In this document: piece by piece, positions 1-55,096 of the stretch | How positions within the stretch are numbered: the stretch's first letter is position 1 | Layout: the number at the start of each line of letters is the position of its first letter | Position numbers and translations under genes: made by a program | NCBI GenBank assembly: GCA_024679065.1 | Contig: JAGIQG010000010.1 | Location: forward strand, 61,876,001-61,940,000 | Length of the DNA stretch: 64,000 bases | Reading direction: 5' to 3' | DNA from: Sphyrna mokarran | Taxonomy: Eukaryota | Notes under the pieces: generated by a model | The model's input: only the letters and a program-made list of their open reading frames with translations | Database searches by the model: none | What the model was told of the DNA's origin: nothing

Positions 1-619
1 TGTGAAATTGATCACTAGCTGTTGCATTTAAAAGGAGTCTCAAAGCTATCGAAGAACATCTGCATTTTGTAGAAGATTCATGAGTAAACAAAAGTGGACA
101 TAATAGTTTGTTTTGAACCTTCCTTTGGAAAAACCTCATCAGCGTGATGCTATTCCGGGAAGTCATGGCTTATATTTCCGATTAAAATGAAAGCAGTTTC
201 TCAGTTTGGATAATATTTTCTGGATTGAATGGTTAAGAATCTAAGGATTATTGCTAGAAAATAAAGTTTTATTAAGTGATCAGCATTTTGAGAGTCATTT
301 TATAAGACTTTTCTAACTATGCTACCTAGTGTGTTTTGAAATTTTATTTTTTTTAAATAGCCATTTTAATTCTTCAAATTTCAAAAGTTATCAATGAAGT
401 CCTATGCTTTTGTATTCAGTAGCTTTCCTTCCTCATTTCTACAATACAATAAACAATTACAATCAAATGATAGATTGTGATCTGAGATACAGCAGTCATA
501 ACACAGGAACAGGATATTCAGGACTGGAGAACTACTCACACCATACCCGAGAGCAGAAGCTACAATCATAGCAATTTGTGCACAGGGTACACGTGACTTA
601 TTGGGTTCTCCAGGAGGAA

Positions 620-1330
620 CTGCATCCAACCGTGGTGCCTATGTAAGAATGTCGCCTTCGTTACGACAATTTGCTGACTTGTTCCACTGTTACTATTACT
701 TTGTGACAAGTAAAGGGACACCATTCACAGCTTTTTTGGGAGGAATTTTCTGGTTCTCTCAACCCAAACCTGGAAAATCCCGTTCAAGGTCAACAGACCT
801 CTGCACGGTCCACCCCCTACGATTCCCGTGGCGGTCGGGATGGTAAAATTCCAGCCGATGTCTCAAATTTCAGACTGCCTCAGGGAATCAGTGCAGTATC
901 AGCTAAGGAAGTTTTCAGGACATGTTTTTTGTGGAACTCTTTTAGAAAGCAGCTGAAGTCATCTACTTTGGTCCAGCTTCAGACAGCAGAGGCACAGAGC
1001 CAGGGACGTCTCCAGGATAATTGGATCCCCCAGTGTGCAGGGTGCCACAATGACCTGAACATGACACTGAAAGTGCCAAATGAGCAGCCACTGACATATG
1101 TGAATAAGCAGGGGCTCCATTCTCAGGGCTTTCAGCTTGTCTGTGATGCAAACCAGGCCATGTCTTCACTCACCACTACAAGGGCACCTAATCTAATTAA
1201 GGACAAATTTTGCATGACATCTTCGTTGTGACAGTTCCTCCTACACAGCCTACCATTTGACACTGAGTCAAATCGCTTCATCCTAGCAGCACCTGACGAG
1301 GAATTTTTACCTGTGTGGAGAAGCGTGAAT
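620..1330 (+). pseudogene. Degraded PIF/Harbinger (HARBI1-like, DDE_Tnp_4) transposase relic
   Basis: ORF 929-1231 contains TLKVPNEQPLTYVNKQGLHSQGFQLVCDANQ, matching the Harbinger transposase motif (DCTH..I.AP....Y.NRKG.HS.N.Q.VCD); CCCAGTGTGCAGGGTGCC (PSVQGA) just upstream in another frame; frameshifted. Confidence 0.7.
739..856. mobile_element. Short MITE (about 120 bp) inserted in the Harbinger relic
   Basis: Imperfect TIRs GGAGGAATTTT...GGTAAAATTCCAGCC; related copies at 16796-16918, 44193-44281 and 49989-50123. Confidence 0.6.
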
Positions 1331-2550
1331 CTATTTCCCAACTTACTGTAATGTTCGTAAATAACAAATCACAAGGCCAGCATATTTCAAAGTACAAATT
1401 TCTTTTTATGCAAGCTAAGGGAACATAGGAACAAGAATAGAGCATTCAGCCCTTGAACCTGTTCTGCCATTCAGTCAGATCTTGGCTGATCTGTACGTCA
1501 ACTCCATTTACTTATCTTTGATCCATATCCTTTGATGTCCATACCTAACAAAAATCTATCGATCTTGGTCTTCAACTGATCTAGCTTTCTGGGAAGGTGA
1601 GTTTCAAGTACTGTGGAGTTAGTGTTTGTGAAAATTATAAAACAATTGTAAAAATGCGAAGAGCATGGTCTGTTTTAAAAGGTGGTTTGGTGCTTATGAG
1701 TTTAAAAAAAAATCCAGTACACAGTCTGAAATAATGTATCAGAGGCAAAACAACAAGGTTGCTTTGGTAACAGCATTAGGATTTGAACCAGAACATGTTT
1801 TTGAATTTTAACCAATCAGTTTGGAATAGGTATTTGAATAGCCGCAGCCTATCAAATTTGAATTTTATGTTTTGATAACCTGTAGACCAATCCTATTGTA
1901 CAAACTTTGATATGTCATCTGGAGACATATAACCAACTCCTAACTCCAAACAGCCAGACAGCTATTTGTCAGCTTCTGTCAGCAATTGCTACAGCTCACA
2001 GCTAGTGAGAGACAAACTGCTCTCAATCAGTGACAGTAAGTAGTTTCACAACACCAGATAAAAGTCCAACAGGTTTATTTGGTAGTATGAGTTTTTGGAG
2101 CATTGCCCCTTCATCAAATGAGTGAAGAGCTCAGTTCACAAGCAGGACATATGTAGACACAAACAAGATAATAGTTGGAATGTGAGTCTTAACAGGTAAT
2201 CAAGTCTTTATAGGTGCAGACAATATGAGTGGAAAGAAGGTTAAGCACAGGGTAAAGAGATATGAATTGTCTCTAGCCAGGACAATTACTGAGATTTTGC
2301 AAACCTAGGCAAGTCACAAGGGTGACAGATAGTGTTGACATGAACCAAAGATCCTGGTTGAGGCTGTCCACATGTGTGCGGAACTTGGCTATCAGTCTCA
2401 GCTCAGCGATTCTACATTGTCATATGTTGTGAAGGCTGTCTTGGAGAATGCTTACTTGAAGATCAGAGGCTGAATGCCATTGACTGCTGAAGCGTTCCCG
2501 GACAACCCTCGGTGTATACAGGATCTGCTCAGATGAGGAGGATCGCAACA

Positions 2551-3610
2551 GATTGACATCATTTACTTCCTTTGGACTCTCAGTGATCAATCACTGAAAC
2601 AACTATATGATGACATCAACAAGTTCCATCTCATCATCAGACCACCATGGGCTACTCTCCGGAATTGGTTGTATTCTTGGACACAAGCATCTCCATCAAG
2701 GACAGTCATTTCAGCACTTTACTATACCAGAAGCCCACAGATAACCTCACAATACTCCACTTCTCCAGCTTCCACCCTAAACACGTTAAAGAAGCCATCC
2801 CCTACGGACAAGCCTTCCGTATACATAAGATCTGCTCAAATGAAGAGAATTGTAACACACACCTACAGACACTGAAAGATGCCCTCATAAGAACAGGAAA
2901 ATGGCACTCAAATCATCGAATGACAGTTCTGATGTGCCACAGTGAAAACTGCACAGACCTTCTCAGTAGACAAACATGGGACACAGTAGAGAGAGTACCC
3001 TTCGTCGTCCATACTTCCCTGGAGTGAAGAAGCCAAGACATTTTCTCTGAAGCCTTCAGCATGTCATTGATGAAGACAAACATCTCACCACGGCCATCCC
3101 CCTACTTCCAGTACTTGCCTTCAAACAACTGCGCAACCTCAAATACACCATTGTATGCAGAAAACTACCCAGCCTTCAGGAGAACAGTGACCATGACACT
3201 ACACAACCCTACTACAGCAACCTCTGCAAGATGTGACGGATCATTGATACGGATGCCATCATCTCATGTGAGAACACCATTCACCAGACATACGGTACAT
3301 ACTCTTGCAACTTGGCCAATGTTGTCTACCTACATTGCAGGAAAGGATGTCCCGACATATGGTACATTGGGGAGACAATGCAGACTCTATGACAACGAGT
3401 GAATGAACATTGCTTGACAATCACCAGGCAGGAGCGTTCCTTTCTTGTCGGGGAACACCAGCAGTCTTAGGCATTCAGCTTCTGACCTTCGGGTAAGCAT
3501 TGTCCAAGGCGGCCTTCAACAAAGATCTCTGAGCAGAAACTGAGAGCCAAGTTCCACACACATGAGGACGGCCTCAACTGGGATCTTGGGTTCATGTCAC
3601 ACTATCTGTA
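2551..3610 (+). pseudogene. PLE reverse transcriptase C-terminus/thumb plus GIY-YIG endonuclease (frameshifted)
   Basis: FLDTSISIKDSHFSTLLYQKPTDNLTILHFSSFHPKHVKEAIPYGQAFRIHKICS (PLE RT thumb); 3300-3410 reads YSCNLANVVYL..CRKGCPDIWYIGETMQTL*QRVNEH (GIY-YIG motif). Confidence 0.85.
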
Positions 3611-3818
3611 ACCCCCACAACTTGCCTGGATTTGCAAAATCTCAGTAAATGTCCTGGCTGGAGCAATTCACACCCTTTAACCCGTGCTTAACCCTTTTCC
3701 ACTCACATTGTCTGTACCTGTAAAGACTTGATTACCTGTTAAGACTCACATTCCAAGCATTATCTTGTAATTGAGTTTCTGTCTATATATGCTCTACTTG
3801 TGAATTGAACTCTTCACT

Positions 3819-3853
3819 CGCCTGATGAAGGAGCAAAGCTCCGAAAGCTCGTG
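3819..3853 (+). ncRNA. Minimal type I hammerhead-ribozyme-like motif in the PLE terminal repeat
   Basis: CGC-CTGATGA-A-GGAGC(AAA)GCTCC-GAA-AGCT-C-GTG: core boxes CUGAUGA and GAAA, 5-bp stem II, palindromic AGCU stem III, 3-bp stem I; one extra A before stem II. Confidence 0.6.
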
Positions 3854-4685
3854 CTACCAAATAAACCTTTGGGACTTTAATCTGGTGTTGATGAGACTAC
3901 TTATTGTGCCTATCCAGTCCAACATCGACAACTCCACATCTCGGTCAGTCAAACAGTCATATTTTATAAAAGCCTCATCTCATCTCAGAAGAACAGACCA
4001 ACAGAGCATAAGAGAAATCAGCAAAGAAGAAAGAAGATTCTGGAAGCCTACAAACCCAATTGATATCTGAGAGTGACTAAAAATTCTATTTTGTTTGTTA
4101 ATAAGTGAGAATTGTAATGATCTAAACAGCATTCCATTAGACAAGTGTTTTATTTAGCTTGACAATAGTTTAGTTAACCTGTTCACTGTTAGTTAGATAA
4201 AATAAAGTGGTACTTGTTTCTTTTCCAAGAGAGAGTCTCAGGTAGTTATTTTGATTTAACCACTAAAAATTGTTGAAGGCAGATCGTACTTTTTCTCACA
4301 TTCTTTCATAGATTATGAAGGGAGGTACTTCTCTTTGAGTGGTTTAATGTTAGTTTTCTGAGAGGAGATCATCCTCAGCTTCATAACACAAATTTCCATT
4401 ACCCTTTGTGTGAAAAAGTAATCCATAGTTTCACATTTAAATTGCCAAGGTCTAATTTTAAATTTTTGCCCTCTTATCCTTCTTTAGCCCAACAGAGGAA
4501 TTTGTCCTATCAAATCCCTTTATCATTTTAAACACCTTGATCAGCTCATCCCTCAATCTTCCAAAATTAAGCAAGTGTAAATCATATTTATGCAACTTAT
4601 CCACATAATTAAGTTGTTTAAATTCTGATATCGTTCTGGTGAACGTGCACTGTATTATTCCTAAGATCAATATATCTTGCCTGAG

Positions 4686-4885
4686 CAAAAACAGAAAATG
4701 CTGGAAAATCTGAGCAAATCTGACAGCATCTATGGAGAGAGAGAACAGAGCTAATGTTTCGAGTCAAGAGATGAAGGGTCATCCAGATTCAAAATGTTAG
4801 CTTTATCCTCTCTCCGCAGATGATGAAATTTTCCAGCATTTTCTGTTTTTGTTTCAGATTCTAGCATTCACAGTATTTTACTTCT
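4686..4885. mobile_element. Short non-autonomous hairpin element, PLE-terminal-repeat type (second family)
   Basis: Perfect 24-bp inverted repeat CAAAAACAGAAAATGCTGGAAAAT (4686-4709 / 4828-4851) continuing imperfectly inward; one arm has a tail; decayed hammerhead-like core (GATGAAGGGTC...GATTCAAAATGTT; GACTCGAAAC on the other strand). Confidence 0.65.
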
Positions 4886-5164
4886 AGATTTTTCTTAAAG
4901 TTTGATGCCCAAAACCAAACACAGTTCTCCCGATGTGGTCTGGCCAACGCTGTACAGAACTGAAGCATAAATTCCTCACTTTAGTATTTCCAGCTCCTTG
5001 GTATAAAGGACAATACTCCATTCATCTTGTTTTCCTACTTGTGCACTGGTTTTTTAGGAGTTTGTTTACATGGTCATTTAAATACCTCTGTTCTTTCTCA
5101 GCTCTTACTTTTCCACCATTAACAAAATTAACAATTTATTTTGTTCTGGTACAGATTAGATGAA

Positions 5165-5820
5165 CTTGTGCATAAATCATAAAAGAAGTTAGTATACAGG
5201 TACAGCAAGTAGCTCAGTAGACAATGCAATGTTGGCATATATTGCGAAGGGGAATGGAATATAAAAGTAGAGAAGTCTTGTCGCAGCTCCACAGGCTCTT
5301 AATGAGATCATATCTGGAATATTGCACACAGTATTAGCCTCCTTATTTGAAAAAACATAATTGCATTAAAAATATTTCAGAGAAGGTTGGACATTTACAG
5401 ATTGTGGTTTACCAGAATGAGAGGTGATCTTAATGAAATATATAAAATTCTGAAGAGATTTGATAGGGTAGATATGAAGAGGACGTTTCCACTTGTGGGA
5501 GAGACTAGATGCAGGTGACACAGTTTAAGAATAAGAAGTCTATAGTATAAGATGGAGATGTGAAGAAATCTTTTCTCTTAAAGAGTAGTTAGTGTATGGA
5601 ATTTTCTTCCCCAGAAAACAGTAGTCTGCGGTCTTAAATTTATTCAAGACAGAGTTAGACACATTTTTGATAGCAAAGAAAGTCAAGGGTCATGGGATCA
5701 GATGGCAAAGTGGAGTTGAGAAATGCCCAGATCAGCCATGATCTTATTCAATAATAGAGCAAATTTGATGCACTATATAGTCTACTCTTGCTCATTTGTT
5801 TTTTGCTCCTAATTCGTATT
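5165..5820 (+). mobile_element. Old CR1 LINE 3' fragment
   Basis: Degenerate ORF2 C-terminus (ggaatggaatataaaagtagagaagtc; agaatgagaggtgatcttaatgaaatatataaaattctg) and 3' UTR (atcagccatgatcttatt). Confidence 0.75.
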
Positions 5821-6714
5821 TGACAGTAATTTGGAAGCTGTGTTCATTGGATGAAGTTAACTGCTATGGATGGCTGGAATGAAAGATGTGTGGGTATAAG
5901 GATGTTAGGATGGAGGGTGCCATTTTGGAGTCCTGGATGGCATTTGGTGAGTTATTGGAGTTGTGGATATTGTTTGTCAGCATGTAAAGTGAGGATTTAG
6001 CTCTATGGATGTTCTTTGAAGACGGTACTTAAGGAGTGGGCTAGTACCCAGAACGGGCAGGCAGTGAAGGGCAAATGTGGTGACATGTGACCTTTGCCTG
6101 TGAACGTGAAGTGGTTTCTCTTTTTCCTGCACAGTTGATCAATCCTGATTGTGAGGAGTCAGGAATGAGTGCCAGTGTTGGCTTCCGGCAGATGTTGATG
6201 CTGGCACTTGATTTGCTAAAGGGAAGACTCAGGAGTGTCAGGTTCTAGTCTTGCATTTCTTGGAGACGAGCTTGAAGATCTTCATCAGAGAAATGGATTG
6301 TGCTTTCTATGCCTGCCGTCCTGGCTTGGTGCCCAGTGGGCACAGCTGGCAGTTAAGTAGGCAGGATGATGCCAATCTGGACTGTGTTGTGGGTGAGAGA
6401 TGCCATCAAATAATTGGATGGAAATTGCCAACGAAACCACTTGTGCAGTCCTTACCTTGCTACTGCTGGGTGTCTGCAGAGGACTTTAAAAGAGTTATAT
6501 TTCTGTTGTCCTGGAGGAGGTCAGGTAATATTCGCAGGGTTTCATTAACCTTAGGTTCACATGGAGAAAATCAGGGGAGTTGTAATATAGGCTGCTGACT
6601 TGCAATGAAAGTTGTAAAACAAGTGCTAATTCACTATATGGAGCATCAAAATGGCTGTGAATGGAGGTTGGGGAGTGTGGGTTTAGGTTCAGAAATGCAC
6701 CAATGGAAACAACA

Positions 6715-6880
6715 GGCAGAATTTTATGCCCCTCTCCCCCCATGATGAGTTTTACAGCAGCCGGAGAAATCTTTTGCTCCTGCTGCTGTCAATGGAGTTT
6801 CTCATTGTTTGCATCCTCCAGCAATGGGGAGCTTGTGGCAGGGGTTTGCTATTGGCAGAAATAGCCAGAAAATGCCAGCC
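6715..6880. mobile_element. MITE-like element with GGCAGAATTTT...AAAATGCCAGCC termini
   Basis: Terminal inverted similarity; same terminus type as the other short TIR elements in the window. Confidence 0.45.
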
Positions 6881-7044
6881 AACATTTAATTATACCACAT
6901 CTTCAAAGCAGTGAAACATCCCAAAGCAGTTTACAGAAAAGTTAATAAAATTTTATAGTAAGCCATTTAAAAGCTGATGAAAAAGTTTGGTTAAAAAGAA
7001 GTAGGTTTTAAGGAATGAAGTAAAGAAGGTAAAAAGCCATGAAT

Positions 7045-7850
7045 GCAAATGGCGACGGATGCAAAATCTCATGAGAATTGGAAAACAAAACTCAGTGGCA
7101 AGATCTTGTTTTCTGATTTCGCCTGCTCCTCGATGGTGATATGCTGAGGTTCCTGTCCAAAAAGGGAGGAAGTGCATTTGAATACATAAATATATTTTAA
7201 TATAATTAGCAGGCTTCCCCACCATGTCCCTCCCCAAACATTTAGAATTCTCCTCGTATTGATATGCCGTGAAACCGGTGAGGTTTACAATGACTTTCCA
7301 AAAACCTGAAGCAGTTGAGGGAAATCCACTGGTTGTAAACAGTTAAGGATAGCCCATTAAGGAGAAAGGACATGCCCAGCCAGACCCTGGCACTGCAATG
7401 ATGGCATGCCAGGTTGGTACAAGGAGCTCTAACAGGGGGTTTACCGTATGTGTGAGATAGTTTGCCATGGTACTTTGGGGTAAGGGGGTTCATCTTATCC
7501 ATAGGGTTAGGGCAGGGAGGGTGTTGCCTGGTAAGTTGTGTGGAAATTTCTCCTTGTCTGTGGGTAGTTGGCTTTGCCTTGGTGCGTGTGGGGGAGAGGA
7601 GGGGTTCTGTGGGGATGGGTAGAGGATTGCCCCAGTACATGTGGGGAGGTGGGTTCCTCATATCCTTGGTTGGGAGTAGGAATGTTTTTTTTAGGGCTGA
7701 GGGCTGTTCTCTGTGAAGCTGATGCTTCTGGTTCTATCAAGCTCTGTCCCATCAATGTGCAGTGTAGACCATGCATCTACATTTTTTTGTACTGAGTGCC
7801 ATAAAAGCTGTGGAGAAAACTCAGCTTTACAGCTGGGAAGCACTCTGCAT
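7045..7850. mobile_element. Probable non-autonomous DNA transposon (Harbinger-type) relic
   Basis: GC/G-rich interior; 7060-7210 resembles the reverse complement of 61830-62000. Family assignment is inference. Confidence 0.35.
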
Positions 7851-7953
7851 GGGAACTCCATGATTCATTTTCTTCATTGAAACTACCAATGAATCCTAGC
7901 TAACCCACCATTTCTCTTGCAGGCTCTGCAACTCAAAGCTGCTCAGTATATTT

Positions 7954-8278
7954 CATATAGAATCATAAAAGAAATAGGCCATTCAACCCATCAAGTCTGC
8001 ACTGACAACAATCCCACTCAGGGCCTATTCCCTTAATCCTACATATTCATCCTACTAATTCTTCTAACTTACGCATCCCGAGACACTAAGGGCAATTTAG
8101 CATGGCCAATTTACCCAACCTGCACATCTCTGAACTGTGGGAGGAAACCAGAGCACCCAGACGAAATCCACACAGACATGGGGAGCATGTGCAAATTCCA
8201 CACAATGACCCAGGTGGAACTGAACCCAGGTATCTGGAGTTGTGAGGCAGCAGTACTAATCACTGTGCCATCATGCCC
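7954..8278 (-). mobile_element. Full-length tRNA-derived SINE (HE1-type) with CR1-like 3' tail
   Basis: Minus strand starts GGGCATGATGGCACAGTGATTAG (box A), GGTTCAGTTCC (box B), core TCTGGTTTCCTCCCACAG...GGCCATGCTAAATTGCCCTTAGTG, tail ending (ATTCTAT)-like. Confidence 0.85.
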
Positions 8279-8879
8279 ACCCTGGATAATGCCTGGAAAC
8301 TCACCCTGCTCTTCCTGAAAAAACAGAGTTTTTTTCTTCCTTGTCTTTCTGCAATAGCACTTCAGTTTTTAGTCCTGTTATTGCTCCTCCCTAATCTTCT
8401 AATATTCAAAGTATGATAACCCACAATATCATCATTCCTCAAATTAGGATCTGTTTTCAATGTTCTCAATAAAACAAAATCCTATCCATATTGCCAACAT
8501 TTTTCCAGTATAATGTCCTAATTATGTTGGGGGTAGTGTGTTTAAACAAAATGAAAAGATATGGTTTGCACACAGGTTCAAACTAACACACAATAAGTTT
8601 TATTGAAAAAGGTATTTTCTATACTGCACAAAATACAAACTGAATGTAAAACAGCAGTCTGTGGCAACACACTAATGACATCACCAGCAAATCATGTGAT
8701 CAGCTCTTGAAACATTCATGCAATCCTTTTAATGATGTTACAGGACCCAGGCAGCTGAAGGCATAGCTGCCATTGCTGCAACATTGATAAAATTAGGGAT
8801 GCTCAAGAAATCAGAGGAAGCATAGATATTTCAAAGGGTTATAGGACTGGACAAAATAACAGAAATAAGCTCTGCTGAC

Positions 8880-10420
8880 TCCATTTGCTCACCCCACTAC
8901 ACCTCCACAGCATTCAGCATACATGCACAATGTATGATAGACACACTATAGGTTGTATTCCTGAACCTGTCTATCCAATGTGAACAGGCTAATTGCTGCC
9001 CTTGATGTCTCCAGTGGAATTCTGGTTGTATCTCTATGTTGCAAGCAAGCACAACTTATAAACAGGAGCCATGTGCACAAATAGCTTAAACTCAAGCTGG
9101 TGTGCTAAATATGGTTAGGTAGCGAGGGGAGCTGGACATGGATGTTCCTGATTTGACAGTGACCAGGAAATCAGGCACAGGCTTGTATGACTTGTTGGCA
9201 ATTGTCATTCATCAGTTGAGCATTGTTGGAGTGATGGCTTTTCCTTCTCATGAAGGCTGCAGGATGATTGGGATGTGCCCTCACAGCTATATGTGCACAG
9301 TTATTGACAGACCATAATGCAAGCCTATCGTGGTAACAAACTCCACAGCTCTTTGCTGCTGATTGCTGCTGTCTGCAAAACATAACAGTTCAAACAAGTA
9401 CTTGATGCAAAGGTTGGAAATACAACGTGACTGACAATTCTGAAGCAAAATAACTAAGTGACCATTGTCATCTTGGCTTAGACTAGCAAGCTAACTTAGA
9501 ATCATAGAATCCCTACAGTGCAGAAAGAGGCCATTTAGCCCATAGAGTCTGCATCAACCAAAATCCCACCCAGGCCTTAACCCCATGTCCTTATATATTT
9601 TACCAGCTAATCCCTCCAATCTACGCATCACAGGACACTAAGGGGCAATTTTAGCATGGCCAATTAACCTAACTTGCATTGCTTGGAGCAGGCTTTGTTA
9701 TAAGATGCAGCACAGGACTGAGGCAGCCTTTAGAGAAGCATAGACTCATGTTGAACTGCTCTTTAGAAAAGTGAAGATAGAATCTGTGCCAATGGATCCA
9801 TTGGCAGAGTAAGGATACTTGTGAACAGTTCTTGTCAGATATCAGTCCTGACTGCAGTTCCTTAAGGTTTCTCCAGCCTGTTCCTGTTACTCCTCTTCCC
9901 TTTCCTCCTCCAATTGTGTGTGTCCAGCTGACTTAGATCAGGAGCCATAAGCTTCTTGAGAATACAAAAGCAGAATAATAGTGAAAAATAGAAAATTCTA
10001 ATGACAAAATTTGTAAAATAATCGAATCATTCGAAATGCAAACAAATACTAATAATCTGAATGGTTGCTGATGAGTGCCCCCTTTAAGTATCAATTCTGC
10101 ATCAAGCCTGTACAGTTCAGTAGTACTGGCCTTGTCCAGCATTTCAAGATACTGAAAAGGTTATCAATGTCCTAATGATATCATAAAATTCTGATTTATA
10201 TACTTTAGCGAGGCTGCTGCCTGCTTCAAACAGGCACATGGTCCATATATGCGAAAGTCTCAAATAAAATAGCAGTGAGCAGGATCGGGTGAGGGGATGG
10301 AGTGGTGTGCAGTAATCTGAATTCAGGATTTCTGCCAAGTGAAGTGAGCTTAGCTTGACCGTGCCATCTGGGAGTTTGGCAAATCTTGCTTTCACTGAGA
10401 ACAGTCCATCATCTGAGACC
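8880..10420 (-). pseudogene. Degraded PIF/Harbinger transposase relic, interrupted by a SINE
   Basis: ORF 9171-9383: NNCAHIAVRAHPNHPAAFMRRKSHHSNNAQLMND...IQACA*FPGHC matches the IDCTH...NRKG.HS.N.Q..CD...ARFPG motif. Outer limits approximate. Confidence 0.65.
9497..9680 (-). mobile_element. tRNA-derived SINE, 3' half
   Basis: agaatcatagaatccctacagtgcagaaagaggccatt tail and ggacactaaggggcaattttagcatggccaat core, as at 7954-8278. Confidence 0.8.
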
Positions 10421-10979: not shown

Positions 10980-11922
10980 GTAAGTTTCCTGAATCAGTCA
11001 CAGACCCTGCAGTGCAGAGGAAGACAGCAGCTCATATATTCTAGTTATGTTCATTATTGTTCTTAAAAAAGTTAATCAGCTCTCAAGGAATGAGAGTCAA
11101 CATTTCCTTGTATATATTTAAGAATAAGAGTTGATTTGGTTCAGGAACTGGACACCGTTGGATACCAACATCAGACACCATGTGTATTTACAATTTTGTT
11201 TGAATATCGAGCAAAACTTAGAATTCAGAAAACTGCAGATAACTAGCTTAGTGAACGTTTATTATATTCTTGCAGAGCTGCCCCTCCCAAAGAAAAGATG
11301 AACAGGTTTGCCACTTACGGTAATAAACAATTACTTCATAAATTGTGGATAGACTTGTTGCAAGACTATCCAAATGACTGATATAATTGGATGGGTTTTC
11401 AATGAATTTGCAAATTGAGATGACATCAAGTTTACTAGCCTTAATGTATTTCTTCTCAGTACCTGACTTCATTTTGATTAAAAGAGTAAAGAATCCAATG
11501 TCTAACCTGTGCTAGTTGAAAGGCTATGGACTCTAATTTGAGGTCAAATTCAGAGGGATGGAAAATTTAGTCATTTACAATTTATGAATGATTATTTTCG
11601 ATTGCATAACAACATTCCTAAGGAGTGAAATTCAATGAGTAAACAAAGATTGGAACAATATGTCAAGAGAGTGAAGGCTGGTTGTTAATGTGGAATTTAA
11701 TCACCTCTTTTTAATGATAATAGCCTTTTTTCTTAATGATAGATCCCATTTAATGTGCTAAATTCTGAAGTTAAGTTGTTCTTAAATTGTTCTGTTTGTT
11801 TAAATTCAGATTGCAAAGATATAGGCATGGCTATTTTCATAAAAAGGAAACAATAGAGTGCAGAATGTAGTGTTATAGTCATAGCTATAACACTATGTGT
11901 TATGAATTGATTGGGGATAATC

Positions 11923-13219
11923 AAATGAATTGATTGGGGATAGTCAGCATGGTTTCGTGAAGGGTAGGTCATGCCTTACTAACCTCATTGAGTTTTTTGA
12001 GAAAGTGACCAGAGAGGTGGATGGGGGTAAGGCGGTTGATGTAGTATATATGGACTTTAGTAAGGCTTTTGATAAGGTGGCCCATGGAAGACTTCTACAG
12101 AAAATGCAGATGTGTGGAATAGAGGGTGATTTAGCTAATTGGATTAGAAATTGGCTGGCAGATAGAAGACAGAGGGTGGTGGTTGATGGGAGATATTCAT
12201 CGTGGAGTTCGGTGACGAGTGGTGTGCCTCAGGGGTCTGTTTTGGGGCCCCTGCTGTTTGTAATTTTTATAAATGATCTGGATGAGGGTATTGAGGGATG
12301 GATCAGTAAATTTGCAGATGATACTAAAGTTGGTGGTGTGGTAGATAGTGAAGAGGGGTGTTTTAGTTTACAGAGTGACTTGGACAAGTTGCAGAGCTGG
12401 GCCGAGAGGTGGCAAATGGAGTTTAATGTGGAAAAGTGTGAGGTAATGCACTTTGGCAGGAACAATAAATGTGTAGAGTATAGGGCTAATGGTAGGGCTC
12501 TTAATAGTGTTGAGGAACAGAAGGATCTTGGTGTATGTGTCAATAGATCCCTGAAAGTAGGCAGTCAAGTGGATAAAGTTGTTAAGAAGGCATATGGAGT
12601 CTTAGCTTTTATTGGTAGGGGGATTGAATTTAGGAGCCGCAGCATCATGTTGCAGCTGTACAAAACTCTAGTGCGGCCGCACTTGGAGTATTGTGTGCAG
12701 TTCTGGTCGCCACATTATAAGAAAGATGTGGAGGCATTGGAGAGGGTACAGAGGAGGTTTACCAGGATGTTGCCTGGTATGGAGGGCAGGTCCTATGAAG
12801 AGAGGTTGAAGGATTTGAGGTTGTTTTCGTTAGAAAGGAGGCGGCTAAGGGGGGATCTTATTGAAACATATAAGATAATTAGAGGTTTGGATAGGGTGGA
12901 CAGTGATAGCCTTTTTCCTAGGATGGAAAAAGCTAGCACGAGGGGACACAACTTTAAATTAAGGGGTATGAGTTATAGGACGGATATCAGAGGTAGGTTC
13001 TTTACTCAAAGAGTGATTAGGGAGTGGAATGCCCTGCCTGCAGCTGTTGTAGATGCGCCAAGTTTGGTGGCGTTTAAGAGGTTAGTTGATAAGTATATGG
13101 ATGAGAAGGGAATGGTTTAGTTAGGAGGGGCATTGCTTTTTATTTTGGTCGACACAACATCGAAGGCCGAAGGGCCTGTTCTGTGCTGTATTGTTCTATG
13201 TTCTATGTTCTATGTTCTA
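11923..13219 (+). mobile_element. Young 5'-truncated CR1 LINE
   Basis: Uninterrupted RT C-terminal ORF, short 3' UTR, (GTTCTAT)n tail at 13193-13219, TSD TAGCTA (11882-11887 / 13218-13223). Confidence 0.95.
11930..13120 (+). CDS. CR1 ORF2 reverse transcriptase, C-terminal 396 aa (truncated, no endonuclease)
   Basis: QHGF, DFSKAFD, GVPQGSVLGP, FADDTK, RPHLEYCVQFWSP, LFSLERRRLRGDL motifs. The start is a truncation, not a real start codon. Confidence 0.9.
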   Translation: MIGDSQHGFVKGRSCLTNLIEFFEKVTREVDGGKAVDVVYMDFSKAFDKVAHGRLLQKMQMCGIEGDLANWIRNWLADRRQRVVVDGRYSSWSSVTSGVPQGSVLGPLLFVIFINDLDEGIEGWISKFADDTKVGGVVDSEEGCFSLQSDLDKLQSWAERWQMEFNVEKCEVMHFGRNNKCVEYRANGRALNSVEEQKDLGVCVNRSLKVGSQVDKVVKKAYGVLAFIGRGIEFRSRSIMLQLYKTLVRPHLEYCVQFWSPHYKKDVEALERVQRRFTRMLPGMEGRSYEERLKDLRLFSLERRRLRGDLIETYKIIRGLDRVDSDSLFPRMEKASTRGHNFKLRGMSYRTDIRGRFFTQRVIREWNALPAAVVDAPSLVAFKRLVDKYMDEKGMV

Positions 13220-21429: not shown

Positions 21430-21530
21430 CTTGAAACATTGGCTCTATTCTCTCTCTAGAGATACTATCAGATCTGCTGAGATTTTCCAGCTTTTTCTGT
21501 TTTTGTTCCAACATCCACAATATTTTGCTT
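21430..21530 (+). mobile_element. Single arm of the PLE-type hairpin repeat (family of 4686 and 31548)
   Basis: cttgaaacattggctctattctctctc...gatctgctgagattttccagc...tgtttttgtt; other single arms near 16985-17040 and 30775-30885. Confidence 0.6.
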
Positions 21531-25728: not shown

Positions 25729-25810
25729 GATGTGGAGATGCCGACGTTGGACTGGAGTAAACACAGCAAGAAATCTTGCAATACCAGCTTAAAGCCCAAT
25801 AGATTTATTT
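25729..25810 (-). mobile_element. PLE terminal tail fragment
   Basis: Reverse complement of 3860-3940 (gatgtggagatgccgacgttggactgg...). Confidence 0.7.
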
Positions 25811-31547: not shown

Positions 31548-31769
31548 ACAGCAAATTACTGCACGTGCTGGAATCTGAAACCAAAAGAGAAAATGCTGGA
31601 AAATCTCAGCAGGTCTGGCAGCATCAGTAAGGAAACAAAAAAGCTGATGTTTTGAGTCTAGGTCAGAGCTTTGGCAAAGGGTCGTCTGAACTCAAAATGT
31701 CAGCTTTTTTTCTCTCCTTACAGATGCTGCCAGACTTGCTGAGATTTTCCAGCATTTTCTCTTTTGTTT
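31548..31769. mobile_element. PLE-type hairpin element (about 220 bp) with TSD
   Basis: Inverted arms 31577-31658 / 31690-31770; extra tail on the left arm; TSD CCTACTTATTGTCAA (31533-31547) / CCTGCTTGTTGTCAA (31770-31784). Confidence 0.75.
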
Positions 31770-32559: not shown

Positions 32560-35030
32560 TGCTTGTTCACAGGTATATTGTGGCCAGTACAGCATGCAGG
32601 GGTAAAACAGTCACCAATTCATTGGAGAGCTGCTGATGACTTGGATGGGCCAGGCTACAAGAGAAGGCTGATGGATGTACGCAATAGCTGATAGCATTCT
32701 TTTCTATTTAAGCATAGCCAGAGTTGACCTTTCCTCCTGCTCATGAACCATTCGCTCTGGGTGTTCCCCAAAAGATGTACTGTCACTCCTTCAGCCACAT
32801 CCTCTGAAAGCACCTGCTGCATTGGGAAGCTTGCCAGAAAGCTTATATTCAATGGCAACAGGCTGGGAAGAGTTTGGAACTGAATTTGAATGAGTTTGTA
32901 CCCCATTTTTTCAAACATGGAAATGATGGTCAACTCCATCAATCTAGTTGTGAACATAGCTGTGATATCTGAACTTCCATTGCAGGTACTAGCAACTTCC
33001 ATCAAAAGCCTGAATGTTGTAAAAGAAGTTCAGACTGCTGTTATTCAGGGTCAGTTCCCTGGCCAGACTACTGCCGTCAAGATTGCGAAGATCATTGTAC
33101 AAGGGGACTTGCAGAACGTCACAGCCATCCGGCAATTTGTCTTTCAACAGATTACTAGAATTGTTGATCTCCCAGAGGCGTGGCTATGTTTCCATAGAGC
33201 ACTAAGCTGAACAACAACATTTATACTCCCATTCCTATCACTCAACAACATTGCTTGTCAGCCAGCCAGCCCGAACTGCTGCTGTCTATGCTGAGACAGT
33301 ACAGTCATAAGTCAGGGCCAAAACTGCCCGAGGCTGTGCTGCAAGGCTAACTATAGTCTCCTCCAATGAAGGCCTGCAACCTCTATCAGCCACACAGCAG
33401 TCACACTGGAGCAATGCTGCATAGAAGCAATAGGACAGGCAAAAATTCACAGAAGATAGGCACTAAACCAGTGCCAGTTTGAATGCAAAATGGCTTACTT
33501 CCACTTATAAACTTAGTTTGGAATGATTATTTTGTGGTTTTATTTTTCTATTGTGACCAAGAGGACAATGCATTAATCCCTGCCAGAGGGAGGGTGAGGG
33601 GTATGGGATTGTAGGCAGATAGGAAATTGGATTCTCCTCTTCATGCTCTTGCTTCTCAGCTTCTCCCCCAATAGTTGAATGCAAGGGCTGTGACTTCATG
33701 GAGGTCATGATGCCAGCATTGGACTCGGGTAAACACAGTAAGGAGTCTCACAATACCAGATTAGAGTCCAACCATGATAATGACAATCATACAAGCAAAA
33801 TTCCTATCAAATAAACTGGTTGGACTCTAACCTGGTATTGTGAGATTTCTTACTTCATGAAGGTGCAGCATGCAGCAGTGCAGCATGCAGCAGACCACCA
33901 CAAATCTTGCTACTCAGTCAGTCGAATACTGCAGAGCTCCTCCTGAGCTGTCCAGGCAGTAGAATCATTTCTTCAGTTTGTGCATGGCCTGCTTTATCAC
34001 ATACCTTGTGATAACATGGCTGTTAGTGTATTTGCATACTGTGTACTTTGCATGGGTTGAGAACTGAAAGTATGAACCATGTTGAAACCAAATAGTTTCT
34101 GATGTCCAATACCTATTCTCTGGTTTACTATGGTGTTGAAATGTAGTTGGCACAGCAGACTGGCTCAGAATGAAAGCATCCTGGCCACTCTGAAGATCCT
34201 AGACTTGAGCAGCATGATGCACTGCCCATTGTTATATACCAGTTGGGCATCAAGAAAATTGAATCCTTTTCAATTTTGGTACATTGCAGAGATGATGTGC
34301 AGTGTCCACAAAAATGTGCTTGCAGGCAATCTGACCCAGTACAATGGGACAGCTGGCAAATATTGCAAATGCTTTTGTCCATTTGTCTGCCTGTCTCCCA
34401 CAGAAGAAAATGAAGTAGTTAACTGTCTCTCACCAAAGAGCCTCAGTAATTTCCAGTACAGAACAATCAAATGGCAGTCTTTGAGATCCTACTTATACCC
34501 TGCACTAATCTAGAAGGAACCAGGCATATAAAAATCCATTGCTATGTCACCTTCACAGCCACTGACAATGTGATCCTCTGCTCTGAGTTCCAATTATAGT
34601 TGCAGAGCGAGAACCTTCTTGATGGAGTAAAGATCTCTCACATATTATTTATTGCTGAGGCATTGGTAGGAAAAATAAACTCTGAGCACCCTGATTAAAT
34701 ATGGCCTTCTCCCCCATTTCCTCCTTCCAGCAGCTTGTCCAGCTCTGCACGGCCATTACTCATTCTCCCAATTATATCTATTTTAAGAGGAGGATGTGCT
34801 TGTCCTCTCATGTCTGGCAGCAACTGATTTGTGTAGAACCCTAGAGATCATTAAAAAATCTTTTAGGGCACCTACACACCCCTCCATGCAGAATTTTGAA
34901 ACTTGAATCAACCAAAAATGTGTACAATTGAAGAAATAGTTAAAAAAAAACATGATCAGGAACTAACCTGCAAGCTGATCCCTTTGAATAATGTTGGTGG
35001 GGGTCCTTCCTTTTGTCTAACACACATTCA
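32560..35030 (-). mobile_element. Degraded PIF/Harbinger element; transposase relic on minus strand at about 33870-34720
   Basis: Minus strand reads KGFNFLDAQLVYNNGQCIML...DAFILSQSAVP and TLSVAVKV..AMDFYMPGSF. 32560-33450 may be the convergent accessory gene (inference). Confidence 0.6.
33706..33851. mobile_element. 146-bp mini hairpin derived from the PLE terminus
   Basis: 37-bp inverted arms 33737-33773 / 33818-33854 homologous to 2035-2072 and 3868-3903; tail on left; TSD ACTTCATGGAGGT (33693-33705) / ACTTCATGAAGGT (33852-33864). Confidence 0.8.
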
Positions 35031-36490: not shown

Positions 36491-39360
36491 CTAAACCATT
36501 CCCTTCTCATCCATATACTTATCAACTAACCTCTTAACCGCCACCAAACTTGGCGCATCTACAACAGCTGCAGGCAGGGCATTCCACTCCCTAATCACTC
36601 TTTGAGTAAGAACCTACCTCTGATATCCGTCCTATAACTCATACCCCTTAATTTAAAGTTGTGTCCCCTCGTGCTAGCTTTCTCCATCCTAGAAAAAGGC
36701 TATCACTGTCCACCCTATCCAAACCTCTAATTATCTTATATGTTTCAATAAGATCCCCCCTTAGCCGCCTCCTTCTAACGAAAACAACCTCAAATCCTTC
36801 AACCTCTCTTCATAGGACCTGCCCTCCATACCAGGCAACATCCTAGTAAACCTCCTCTGTACCCTCTCCAATGCCTCCACATCTTTCTTATAATGTGGCG
36901 ACCAGAAATGCACACAATACTCCAAGTGCGGCCGCACTAGAGTTTTGTACAGCTGCAACATGATGCTGCGGCTCCTAAATTCAATCCCCCTACCAATAAA
37001 AAGCTAAGACTCCATAAGCCTTCTTAACAACTTTATCCACTTGACTGCCTACTTTCAGGGATCTATTGACACATACACCAAGATCCTTCTGTTCCTCAAC
37101 ACTATTAAGAGCCCTACCATTAGCCCTATACTCTACACATTTATTGTTCCTGCCAAAGGTCATTACCTCACACTTTTCCACATTAAACTCCATTTGCCAC
37201 CTCTCGGCCCAGCTCTGCAACTTGTCCAAGTCACTCTGTAAACTAAAACACCCATCTTCACTATCTACCACACCACCAACTTTAGTATCATCTGCAAATT
37301 TACTGATCCATCCCTCAATACCCTCATCCAGATCATTTATAAAAATTACAAACAGCAGGGGCCCCAAACAGACCCCTGAGGCACACCACTTGTCACCGAA
37401 CTCCACGATGAATATCTCCCATCAACCACCACCCTCTGTCTTCTATCTGCCAGCCAATTCCTAATCCAATAGCTAAATCACCCTCTATTCCACACATCTG
37501 CATTTTCTGTAGAAGTCTTCCATGGGCCACCTTATCAAAAGCCTTACTAAAATCCATATATACTACATCAACCGCCTTACCCCCATCCACCTCTCTGGTC
37601 ACTTTCTCAAAAAAACTCAATGAGGTTAGTAAGGCATGACCTACCCTTCACAAAACCATGCTGACTATCCCCAATCAATTCATTTCTCTCTAAATAACTA
37701 TAAATCCTATCCTAATAATTCTCTCCAATACTTTGCCCACAACAGAAGTAAGACTCACTGGCCTATAATTCCCTGGAAGGTCTCTCTTCCCCTTCTTGAA
37801 CAATGGGACCACATTCGCTATCCTCCAGTCCTCAGGAACCACACCCGTAACCAACGACGACCTGAAGATCAGAGCCAGAGGCTCTGCAATCTCCTCTCTT
37901 GCCTCCCAGAGAATCCTAGGGTAAATCCCGTCCGGCACAGGGGACTTATCCAACTTCAAACCCTCGAGAATTTCTAACACATCCTCCCTATCTACTACAA
38001 TACTCCCCAATTTGCAACCCTGTACCTCAGTGCTCTCCACAGCTACATTTCCAGCACTCTGCGTGAATACCGAAGAGAAATATTTATTCATTGCCTCACC
38101 AATCTCTTCAGGCTCCACGCACAACTTCCCACTGCTGTCTATGACTGGCCCTAATCTTGCCCTAACCAATCTTCTATTATTAACATATCGAAAGAAAGCT
38201 TTAGGATTCTCCTTAATCCTATCAGCCAACATCTTCTCGTGTCCCCTCTTAGCTTTCCTCAATTCACTTTTTACCTCCTTCCTAGCTAATCTATAGCTAT
38301 CCATTGCACTACCTGAGCCTTCAAGCCTCATCCTGACATAAGCCTCCTTTTTCTTCTTAACCAGCAAATAAACTCTTTTCGTACACCAAGGCTCTCTTAC
38401 TCGTCCATTTCCTCCCTGCCTGACAGGGACATACTTATCAAGGACTCTCAGCAGCTGCTCCTTGAATAAGCTCCACATTCCAGATGTTCCCAGTCCCTGT
38501 AGTTTCCTAGTCCAATCTATGCACCCTAATTCTCTCCTGATGCCTCATAATTACCCTTCCCCCAGCTATAACTACTGCCCCCAGCTTCATGCCTATCCCT
38601 ATCCATCACTAAGGTGAACATAACCGAATTATGGTCACTATCACCAAAATGTTCACTAACTTCCAAGCCTAACACCTGGTCTGGCTCATTGCCAGCACCA
38701 AATCCAATGTAGCCTCACCTCTAGTTGGCCTATCTACATACTGAGTCAAAAAACCTTCCTGCACACTCTGTACGAAAACTGACCCCTCTAACGAGCTAGA
38801 GCTATAGCTATTCCAATCAATATTAGCAAAGTTAAAGTCACCCATCACAATTACCCTACTACTTTCACTCCTAATCAGAATTGACTTGGCAATCCTTTCC
38901 TCAACCTCTCTAGAACTATTAGGAGGTCTGTAAAAGACTCCCAACAGGGTGACCTCTCCTCTCCTGTTTCTAATCTCAGCCCATACTACCTCAACAGACA
39001 AGTCCTCATCAAACTTCTTTTCGATCAACGTGATACAGTCTTTGACCAGTAACGCCACTCCTCCCCCCCTTCTACCCCCTTCTCTACTCCGACTAAAGCA
39101 TTTGTACCCCGGAACCTGCAGCATCCATTCCTGTCCCTGCTCTACCCAAGTCTCTGAAATGGCCACAACATCGAAGTTCCAGGTACTGGTCCAAGCTGCA
39201 AGTTCCTCCTCCTTATTGCGAATACTCCTTGCATTAAAGTATACGCATCTCAAACCATGCCCCACCCCACCCGTACGCCGCTGTGTTTTACAACTCTCCT
39301 CTATAACCCCCTTACTCTCATCCCTATCAGCACCCCAACTACTTAGGATCCCACCCCCCC
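36491..39360 (-). pseudogene. CR1 ORF2 (APE endonuclease + RT), broken by single-base frameshifts
   Basis: YFNARSI, DVVAISETW, GGGVALLVK, GVFYRPP, MGDFN, LDLVL (APE); WRIANVVPLFKKG..NYRPVSLTS, DFSKAFD, FADDTK (RT) across consecutive ORFs. Confidence 0.9.
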
Positions 39361-39366
39361 CCCGAA

Positions 39367-40226
39367 TCAGTTTAACGCCCCCATCATAGCCTTAGCAAAT
39401 TTTCCCCCTAAGATATTAGTCCCCCTCTGGTTCAGGTGTAGACCATCTCTCTTGAAGAGGTCCCACCTATCCCAGAATGAGTCCCAATTGTTAAGGAACC
39501 TGAACCCCGCCCTCCTGCACCATCCACGCAGCCATGAGTTCAAACTATCCCTTTCTCTGTTCATCTCTAAACTATCCCTTGGCACAGGCAAGAGTCCAGA
39601 GATAACCACTCTGCCTGTTATGGACCTAAGCTTCCACCCTAACTCCATAAATTTCTGTTTAATATCCCCCTCCCTTGTCCTACCTACATCATGTGTCCCC
39701 ACATGAACAATGCCTTGGGGCTGACTCCCCTCACCCTTAAGAATCCTAAAAACCCGATCTGCGACATCCTGGACCCCAGCCCCTGGGAGGCAACACACCA
39801 GCCCTGAGTCCTGTTTATTACTATTTACCCGCCTATCTGTCCCTCTAACTATGGAGTCTCCTATAACTAGGCCTAATCTCTTATTCCCCCCACCCACCTG
39901 AGCATTCTCAGCAGGCTCACCCCCAGAGACCTGCTCCCTTTGGTCAGCTCCAGTTGATCCTTCCTCAACTGTAGCCTCCAAGACAGAAAATTTATTTTGG
40001 AGGGGAACAGCCCCAGGGGATTGTCTCCCCGATTGCTTCTTACCCTCCTCCTAATAGTTACCCAATTATCACTTATAGGAGTTACAATCTCTTTGTTACT
40101 CCTGCCTATATCCTCCTCAACCTCTCGAATTACTCTGAGCTCCTCTAATTCCAGCTCCAGCTCCTTAACACGATCCTCAAGGAGCTGCAAGTGTGCACAC
40201 TTCCTGCAGGTATAATCAGCAGGAAA
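39367..40226 (-). pseudogene. CR1 ORF1 (zinc finger remnant, coiled coil, SGNH esterase domain), one frameshift
   Basis: PADYTCRKC, LEDRVKELELELEELRVIRE, VIGDSIVRG (GDS), CCLPGA, HVGTHD, DGLHLN. Confidence 0.9.
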
Positions 40227-52440: not shown

Positions 52441-55096
52441 GTAAATAATCCAGCCCTAGTGCATAGTATGGATGATTGGACTGTATGTGAATGGAACAGA
52501 TCAGAAGATGAGTTACTCACTGTAATATTCATAGCTTCTGACCTGTTCCTGTATCCACTGTGTTTATGTAATGAGTCTAGTTGAGTTTCTGGTCAATGTT
52601 ATCCCCAAGAATGTTGACAGTGGGAGATTCAATGATGGTTACACCATTGAATGTTAAGGGGTGGTGGTTAGAGTGCCTCTTATTAGAGTGCTTGGCATTT
52701 GTGGGGCACAAATGTTACTTGCCACTTGTCAGTCAAAGCCTAGATGTTGTCCAGATCTTGTTGCATTTGAACATGGACTGCTTCAATATCTGAGGAATCA
52801 CGAATGGTGCTGAACATTGTGCAATCATCAGCGAACATCCCCGCTTCTGACTTTATGAAGAGAGAAGGTCATTGATGAAGTAGCTGAAGATTGTTGGACA
52901 CAGGGCACTACCCTGAGGGACTCCTGCAGAGATGTCCTGGAATGGAGATGAATGACTTTTCACAACCACAACCGTCTTCTGATATAGCAGGTATGACTCC
53001 AACCAGCAGAAAGTTTGCTCCTGAAACCCACTGATTCCAGTTTTCTAGGGCTTCTTGATGCCACACTCCATTGAATGTGGCCTTGATGTCAAGGGTTGTC
53101 AGTCTCACCCCACCTCTGGAATTCAGCTGTTTTGTCCCTGTTTGAACCAAGGCTGTAATGAGGTCAGGAACTGAGTGACCCTGGCAAAACCCAAACTGGG
53201 CATCACTGAGTAGGTTATTGCTGAGCAGATCCTGCTTGATAGCACTGTTGATGATCCCTTCTATCACTTTACTGATAATTGAGAATAGACTGATTGGCCA
53301 GTAATTGGATGGGTTGGATTTGTCCTGCTTTTTGTGTACAGGACATACTTGGGCAATTTTCCACATTGTTGGGTGGATGTCAGTGTTGTAACTGTACTGG
53401 TAGAGCTTGGCTCGGGAAACGGCAAGTTCTGGAACACAAATCTTCAGTAATTTTGCCGGAACGTTATCAGAGCCCGTTGCCTTTGCCGAATCCATTGTTT
53501 CCAATTGTTTCTTGCTATCACATAGAGTGGATTGATTTGGCTGAAGACTGGCATCTGACATGCTGGGAACAACTGAAGGAGACCGAGATAAATCATCCAC
53601 TCGGCATTTCTAGCTGATGATTGTTTCAAATACTTCAGCCTTATCTTTTGCACTGATGTGCGGGGTTCCTCCATCATTTAGGTGGGGATATTTGTGGAGC
53701 CTCCTCCTCCAGTGATTTGTTTAATTGTCTACCATTATACAGATTGGATAGGGAAGGACTGCAAAGCTTAGATCTGATCTGTTGGTTGTGGGATTGTCTA
53801 TCACTTTTTTTTTTGCCGTTTGAAATGCAAGTAGTCCCATTTTGTAGCTTCACTAGGTTGACACCTCATTTTTAGATAAGCGTGGTGCTGTTCCTGGCAT
53901 GCTCTCCTGCACTCTCCATTGAACCAGGGTTGATCCTCTCGCTTGATGATAATGATTGAATGGGGGATATGCTGTTGCGGATTGTGCTGGGGTACAATTC
54001 TGCTGCTATTGGTGGTCCACTGTGCCTCATGGTTGCCCAGTCCTGAGTTGCTAGATTGGTTTGAAGTCTGTCCCATTTAGCACAGTGACAGTGTGAAGAT
54101 TATTCTCAATGTGAAGATGGAACTTTGTCTCCACAAGGACTGTGCAGTTGTCACTCTTTCCGTTACTAACATGGAAGGCTGCATCTGCAGCTGGCAGATT
54201 GGTAAAGATGAGGTAAAGTATTTTACTTCCTCTTGTTGTTCCCTCACTACCTGTTGTGGATCTAGTCTAGCAGTTATATCCTGTAGGACCCAATCCCCTC
54301 AATCAGTAGTGCTACTGCCCAATCACTCTTAGTGACGGACATTGAAACCTCCTGTCCAGAGTACATTTTGTGCCCTGCCACCCTCAGTGCTTTCTCCAAT
54401 GTTGTTCAACATGGAGGAACACTGATTCATCAGCCGAAGGAGGATGGTACGTGGTAAATAGTAAGAGGTTTCCTTGCCCATGTTTAACCTGAAGCTATGA
54501 GACTTATGGGGTTCAGAGTCAATGTTAAGGACTCCCAGGGCAACTCATTTCTGACTATATACTACTCTGCCACCACTTCTGTCCTGCTGATGGGACAGGA
54601 CATATCCAGGGATGATAATAGTGATGTCTGGGGTACTATCTGTAAGGTATGGTTCTGTGAGAATGACTATGTCAGGTTGTTGCTTGACTGGCCTGTGAGA
54701 CGGCTCTCCTAATTTTGGCACTAGCGCCCAGAAATTAGTAAGGAGGACTTTGCAGGATTGACATGGCTATTTGTCTGTTTGTTTTGCCATTATCTTTTCC
54801 GGTGCCTATAACAATGCCACGTGGTCTGTCCTATTTCATTCTTTTGTTGAGACTTTGTTCCAATGAGTAGCCAATTTCAGAGGGTAGTCGAGAGTCGACC
54901 ATATCACTATGGCTCTGGAGTCACATATAGGCCAGACCATGTAAAGACGGCAAATTTCCTCCCCTAAAGGACATTAGTGTATCACATGGATTTTTCCGAC
55001 AATCAACAATGGTTTCATGGTCATCAGTAGATTCTTAATTCCAGATATTTTTTATTGAATTCAAATTCCGTCTGCTATGATGAACCTCATGATGAA

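Follow-up and report, generated by a model that had tools for sequence, protein, structure and literature searches.

The stretch of Sphyrna mokarran DNA analysed here (64,000 nt, the window) carries an intact minimal hammerhead ribozyme motif in the terminal repeat of a Penelope-like retrotransposon (PLE), and the locus raises the question of whether such a motif cuts RNA and whether its cutting makes the ends of the element. PMC8557442 describes what PLE hammerheads do as unclear, and the thousands of copies within one genome offer an inexpensive way to ask, from their junctions, which form of the RNA, cut or uncut, served as the template; this is the one point of wider use here. The earlier note on this DNA had described the motif by its parts (CUGAUGA, an extra A, stem II, GAA, AGCU, C3850, and GUG pairing with CGC), all of which were found in place:

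3819-3853, plus strand: minimal type I hammerhead motif, from the sequence and the minimal-hammerhead consensus in supplement file 2 of PMC4209133
3819-3821, plus strand: helix I 5' strand CGC, opposite GTG at 3851-3853 (C-G, G-U, C-G)
3822-3828, plus strand: core CTGATGA
3829, plus strand: extra A, between positions 9 and 10.1
3830-3842, plus strand: helix II, a 5-bp stem of GGAGC (3830-3834), an AAA loop, and GCTCC (3838-3842)
3843-3845, plus strand: GAA, read as GAAA over 3843-3846
3846-3849, plus strand: palindrome AGCT (helix III), without loop 3
3851-3853, plus strand: helix I 3' strand GTG, following the predicted cut after C3850

The motif agrees at every position with the minimal-hammerhead consensus of PLEs (Cervera and De la Pena 2014, PMC4209133): the core CUGANGA...GAAA...UH, the extra nucleotide A3829 with the pair G3830-C3842 (G10.1-C11.1), the palindromic 15.2-16.2 positions (AGCT) without loop 3, and a location in a PLE pLTR are all present. 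The class described there for metazoan PLE pLTRs shares the CUGANGAH core with its extra nucleotide, the 5-bp helix II, the 3-bp helix I, U-rich upstream and AU-rich downstream sequence, and thousands of copies per genome, mostly single; in a turtle motif of supplement file 2, an AATAAA-type stretch likewise comes after a G-C helix III. The earlier note had called for a search with minimal-hammerhead models. The descriptor found the 3819-3853 motif as its sole match on both strands of the window, compared with 0.08 matches per 64 kb in 100 dinucleotide shuffles and none there with both a palindromic helix III and a 5-bp stem II, whereas an Rfam scan of 1-10000 up to E 10 gave eight matches and none to a hammerhead family, so that the identification rests on the descriptor and not on a curated model. 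Helix I of the window motif holds only 3 bp, one of them G-U; the CGC strand is real in this copy, whereas the family has CAC (A at 3820 in 51 of 54 copies). The motif is a genuine copy of the known PLE minimal type I hammerhead class, as had been claimed, and adds one more genome to an already described class. The PMC4209133 supplement files searched contain no term for cartilaginous fish, and a title and abstract search, with thin coverage of the subscription literature, found no paper that relates the 5' junctions of PLEs to their hammerhead or deals with PLE hammerheads of sharks.

The host element (2033-3940) is a dead, 5'-truncated Neptune-type PLE with the motif in its 3' pLTR. Its parts and immediate surroundings are as follows:

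2023-2032, plus strand: candidate target-site duplication, left; weak, 7 of 10 bases match 3941-3950
2033-2505, minus strand: 3' end of the element repeated in inverted orientation, 5'-truncated and tail-less; 81% identity to 3445-3907
2086-2120, minus strand: decayed hammerhead in the inverted copy (descriptor, folding)
2499-2552, plus strand: short internal piece resembling 2806-2857, at the inversion junction (repeat comparison)
2553-3940, plus strand: 5'-truncated PLE copy with RT end, Cys linker, GIY-YIG endonuclease, 3' pLTR, and tail (sister-ORF similarity; family extent)
3784-3791, plus strand: TATA-box consensus match, 32 nt upstream of A3816
3813-3818, plus strand: initiator-like TTCACT, with a putative RNA start around A3816-3820 (5' junction cluster)
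3860-3865, plus strand: AATAAA, then a GT-rich stretch; possible poly(A) signal (conserved in family copies)
3907-3940, plus strand: PLE 'tail', an optional extension of ~34 nt (family copies)
3941-3950, plus strand: candidate target-site duplication, right; weak

Stops and frameshifts break the RT and GIY-YIG frames of 2553-3940, whose coding remnant is ~64-73% identical in amino acids to the ORF of a sister family. That ORF matches RVT_1 and GIY-YIG in Pfam; Pfam gave nothing significant for two short peptides from the window, and a PDB sequence search gave no match. In a near full-length copy of the young sister family (locus L241, 3700-4800, minus strand; about 3.2 kb, with an inverted pLTR), the ATG of the ORF adjoins the end of the tail and thus lies ~90 nt downstream of the cut. 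The linker majority in family copies is C-x4-C-x2-C (C in 24, 26, and 23 rows), which fits CX2-5CxxC, and the window copy has lost two of the three linker cysteines; the nuclease residues C/C/H/H are present in family copies, in the order RT and then C-terminal GIY-YIG with CCHH. In PMC8557442 the Cys linker and CCHH are given for Neptune and Nematis and not for Penelope/Poseidon, and the assignment to the Neptune type is read from these features, which Nematis shares. The same linker and nuclease characterize EN+ PLE/Neptune elements (Craig et al. 2021, PMC8557442; Arkhipova et al. 2013, PMC3846280), as do an inverted 5'-truncated copy adjoining the main copy and a 30-40-bp tail on one end. 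This inverted layout was seen again at several other family loci; unlike the described PLE arrangements, however, the window locus has no direct tandem pLTR. The 2499-2552 piece at the inversion junction is likely a template jump. Non-LTR retrozymes, whose type I hammerheads are related to PLE pLTRs, are known from one chondrichthyan genome (Li et al., bioRxiv 10.64898/2026.07.22.740005). They consist of non-coding units in tandem, every unit bearing a hammerhead, whereas the window locus has one sense copy joined to coding remnants, one decayed inverted copy, and no tandem hammerhead units.

The intact state of the motif is not exceptional. Across the 2.77 Gb searched, the exact intact pattern occurs in 852 copies (control, 0), and the downstream 32-mer of the family has 9422 exact matches. 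Fifty-four copies were taken from 58 loci picked by upstream or RT sequence, the motif not being a criterion; the core is intact in 22 of them and the whole motif in 2. Identity at non-CpG positions is 91.7% in the core (495/540) vs 91.0% in the downstream flank (1961/2156), and 88.4% for both flanks together. G12 has changed to A by CpG decay in 21 of the 54 copies, the G and C of helix III are each kept in 50, and the window copy differs from the family majority at 17 of 130 positions. Selection on the window copy was rejected, the core decaying at the rate of its flank. A view of this copy as special or active is not supported by these counts and the dead element around it: the window copy is a chance survivor of neutral decay, ordinary among its family, and its motif is likely inert.

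The architecture itself demands two copies, as the earlier note had held and as published (PMC4209133), but pairing through AGCU alone is insufficient. With no loop 3, the topology of the hammerhead requires that the cleaved strand come from a second copy, and therefore helix I as well as helix III must form in trans. Nearest-neighbour folding, which ignores the tertiary core, gave -16.1 kcal/mol for the active dimer vs -24.9 for the best dimer fold, with a helix III probability of about 0; by the same secondary-structure energies, the active dimer of a family-type copy is also disfavoured. An intramolecular dimer at the window locus was rejected because there is no second sense copy within the element. 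The inverted hammerhead has lost C3, G12, G15.2, and both helix I ends, which bears out the decayed core noted there earlier (about 2085-2122). In the predicted read-through fold, 31 of the 35 motif bases pair with the inverted arm. The inverted copy would pair with the motif instead of acting as its partner, and read-through RNA at this locus would bury the motif in a long duplex.

Conservation of the core and stem pairing across the family, on which the earlier note had staked its reading, does appear between families. A looser search added 4901 cores (control, 45), which belong to several families whose stems differ. The 146 distinct matches include eight stem II types with at least three copies; in these types, 29 of 32 cells are paired vs 19.5 +/- 2.3 with partners shuffled, and 1 of 5000 shuffles was as high; the types share ancestry and are partly preselected, so that this covariation counts as support and not as independent events or a probability. 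Helix I alternates between CAC/GTG and TGC/GCA from family to family, and the extra nucleotide is A in 143 of the 146 matches. Helix III is GC or CG in 140 of the 146, but its SS pattern, like the G10.1/C11.1 pair, was imposed in the searches, and the fair covariation test is that of the other pairs. The motif was likely under selection in active ancestors and not at the window locus.

Whether cleavage made inserted ends was judged from the junctions of the copies. Family copies have their 3' ends near 3906 or near 3940, which is 55 or 90 nt downstream of the cut. The tail is present in 35 of 90 young sister copies. For the 5' junctions, the old-family sample was the first 90 among 9422 copies listed via the downstream 32-mer, on one contig. 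Thirty-three of these start at -29 to -43 from the cut, an interval chosen post hoc after inspection of the data (a rate of 4.2% per nt where each flank shows about 0.5%; P 2e-13), and the rate within the motif is at background (0.4-0.5% per nt); in a separate sample, 9 of 30 copies start at -32 to -43. At 0 to +7, 14 of the 90 alignments end (1.2% per nt), of which about 5 could start at the cut by eye, the others being deletions, subfamily indels, or downstream starts. In the young sister family (the first 90 among 3077 copies listed, one contig), 24 copies start at -33 to -58 and none at -6 to +1. Genome-wide, foreign bases stand just before the cut in 75/4788 copies vs 42/2904 at a control point 7 nt upstream (P 0.70); the denominator of 4788 includes longer subfamilies, which dilutes the rate but would leave a spike of a few percent visible. 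Of 30 inspected at each point, 12-14 proved to be true junctions at the cut and 12-15 at the control point, about 0.6-0.7% each. Neither the sampled junctions of the two families nor the genome-wide count against its control showed a cleavage footprint at 3851. An end of the element RNA made by cleavage after C3850 is therefore not supported, given these 3' ends and 5' junctions not enriched at the cut. Since the junctions lie upstream of the cut, uncut RNA was likely the copied template. This junction map agrees with the single in vitro study (PMC11167929), whereas PMC4209133 proposes cleavage of the precursor RNA.

Several junction details stand apart. L352, L353, L356, L360, L374, and L378 have lost GAAA and the cut site through an internal deletion that recurs among them and is bounded by two short direct repeats of the hammerhead. 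Two head-to-head young copies at L244 (250-500) both start 8 nt before the core, and their joint holds about 50 nt of short repeated antisense hammerhead pieces, suggesting repeated template jumps. On the minus strand, 3816-3824 is a perfect splice-donor consensus in the family majority; the window copy has it in broken form, and the young family does not have it. An antisense splice donor was rejected as the cause of the 5' cluster: the peak is at -31 to -35 vs a splice point at -29/-30, and the young family has no GT.

The 5' cluster instead predicts a transcription start. It peaks at A3816-3820, in TTCACT, 32 nt downstream of TATATATG, and the peak on a CA dinucleotide is kept across families; 3784-3791 matches the TATA-box consensus, and 3813-3818 resembles the initiator (Inr) consensus. 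A TATA-like sequence was found in 12 of 41 matches in family copies. The young sister family has none, and despite this its start cluster persists, although broader. The Pen2a pLTR of the rotifer Adineta has a putative TATA and an Inr-like TCACT (PMC3846280), and the promoter of Drosophila Penelope is internal and lacks a TATA box, with an intron (PMC2377424). A search of sequencing runs found no RNA dataset among the listed holders of the sequence. The cluster might alternatively mark a hotspot of stalling or template switching, where RT drops off just past a folded or protein-bound hammerhead. The cluster does follow the motif in two families whose upstream sequences differ, and it is still there when TATA is missing; many of its junctions are head-to-head inversions. 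A stall, however, would be expected before or within the hairpin and not 2-25 nt after it, the junction rate inside the motif is that of the background, some junctions of the cluster lead into flanking DNA that is unrelated, in part with target-site duplications, and the CA peak is common to the families. We regard the stalling account as unlikely.

A further possibility is that the hammerhead-like fold is a structural or protein-binding element, or a passenger, that never cut at a meaningful rate. Low in vitro activity, and this option itself, are stated in PMC4209133, where dimer and trimer constructs of a Schistosoma motif cut weakly and the monomer showed no activity; Naiad PLEs proliferate without a hammerhead (PMC8557442), and the junctions hold no cut footprint. 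The sequence variation, however, argues for cutting: position 17 is C, U, or A and rarely G (2/54), and position 7 varies while the catalytic positions are fixed across families, the pattern expected from selection on cleavage. In addition, the anole motif showed C3-G8 rescue (PMC11167929). Cut RNA that is destroyed would leave no genomic trace, so that cleavage in vivo is compatible with the junction record. We consider a fold that never cut to be distinctly improbable.

The anole system, PAc, a Poseidon of Anolis carolinensis (Frangieh et al. 2024, PMC11167929), is the only vertebrate case tested. Like the window family, it has a hammerhead in the pLTR and, downstream of this, two sites of RT initiation, to which the tail is due. 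The PAc ribozyme needs its protein in order to cut, and insertion proceeds without cutting; the main substrate is unprocessed RNA, and no RNA reads end at the cut. The PAc ORF starts inside the hammerhead, whereas the ATG of the sister copy follows the tail, about 90 nt after the cut, and Poseidon lacks the Cys linker that the window family has. The earlier proposal that two transcripts of this locus pair via AGCU, are cut after C3850, and so process the element RNA end has in its favour a complete set of core residues and pairs, the weak cutting of Schistosoma dimers and trimers, and an intact TATA that could drive outward transcription from the window repeat, but it is very improbable given element ends away from the cut, the disfavoured active dimer (computed without tertiary contacts), a 3-bp helix I with a G-U pair, a dead ORF, and the protein-dependent, dispensable anole ribozyme.

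Overall, the best explanation, in which we have considerable confidence, is a minimal hammerhead left intact by chance in a dead Neptune-type PLE, descended from a two-copy ribozyme in the 5' leader of the ancestral element, with uncut RNA as the template and cleavage not making the inserted ends. The ancestral RNA would have started just downstream of the putative TATA and initiator, placing the hammerhead in its first ~40 nt and ~90 nt before the ORF start. The two-copy ribozyme would most plausibly have formed within a tandem transcript, its 5' repeat meeting its 3' repeat, and with the help of protein (both suggested by PMC4209133 and PMC11167929). The junctions suggest that reverse transcription from the two tail ends copied mainly uncut RNA to its 5' end, and short cDNAs from the start site to the tail would have left swarms of 90-125-nt copies. 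Cleavage was likely a low-level, late, or regulatory event, which would have removed the capped leader and disabled the RNA. A wider form of this model, in which we have somewhat less than even confidence, is that Neptune-type PLE transcripts start 2-25 nt before the hammerhead, that the solitary minimal hammerheads swarming in animal genomes are uncut 5'-leader cDNAs (90-125 nt), and that the ribozyme is a leader switch by which the meeting of two copies decaps or inactivates the RNA, and not the maker of transposition ends.

Other mobile sequences occur in the window. Short copies of the same pLTR family lie at 25729-25810 (minus strand) and at 33719-33852, the latter a head-to-head pair starting downstream of the hammerhead. 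Another hammerhead-bearing family, with stem II of the GGGTC/GACTC type and an ACGT helix III, has a head-to-head pair of short copies at 4686-4851, with the core decayed around 4770-4800, and more copies at 21430-21505 and, as a pair, at 31583-31765. Open frames of 227-399 aa at 11921-13117, 37693-40050, and 52911-53609 presumably resemble remnants of LINE-type retrotransposons.
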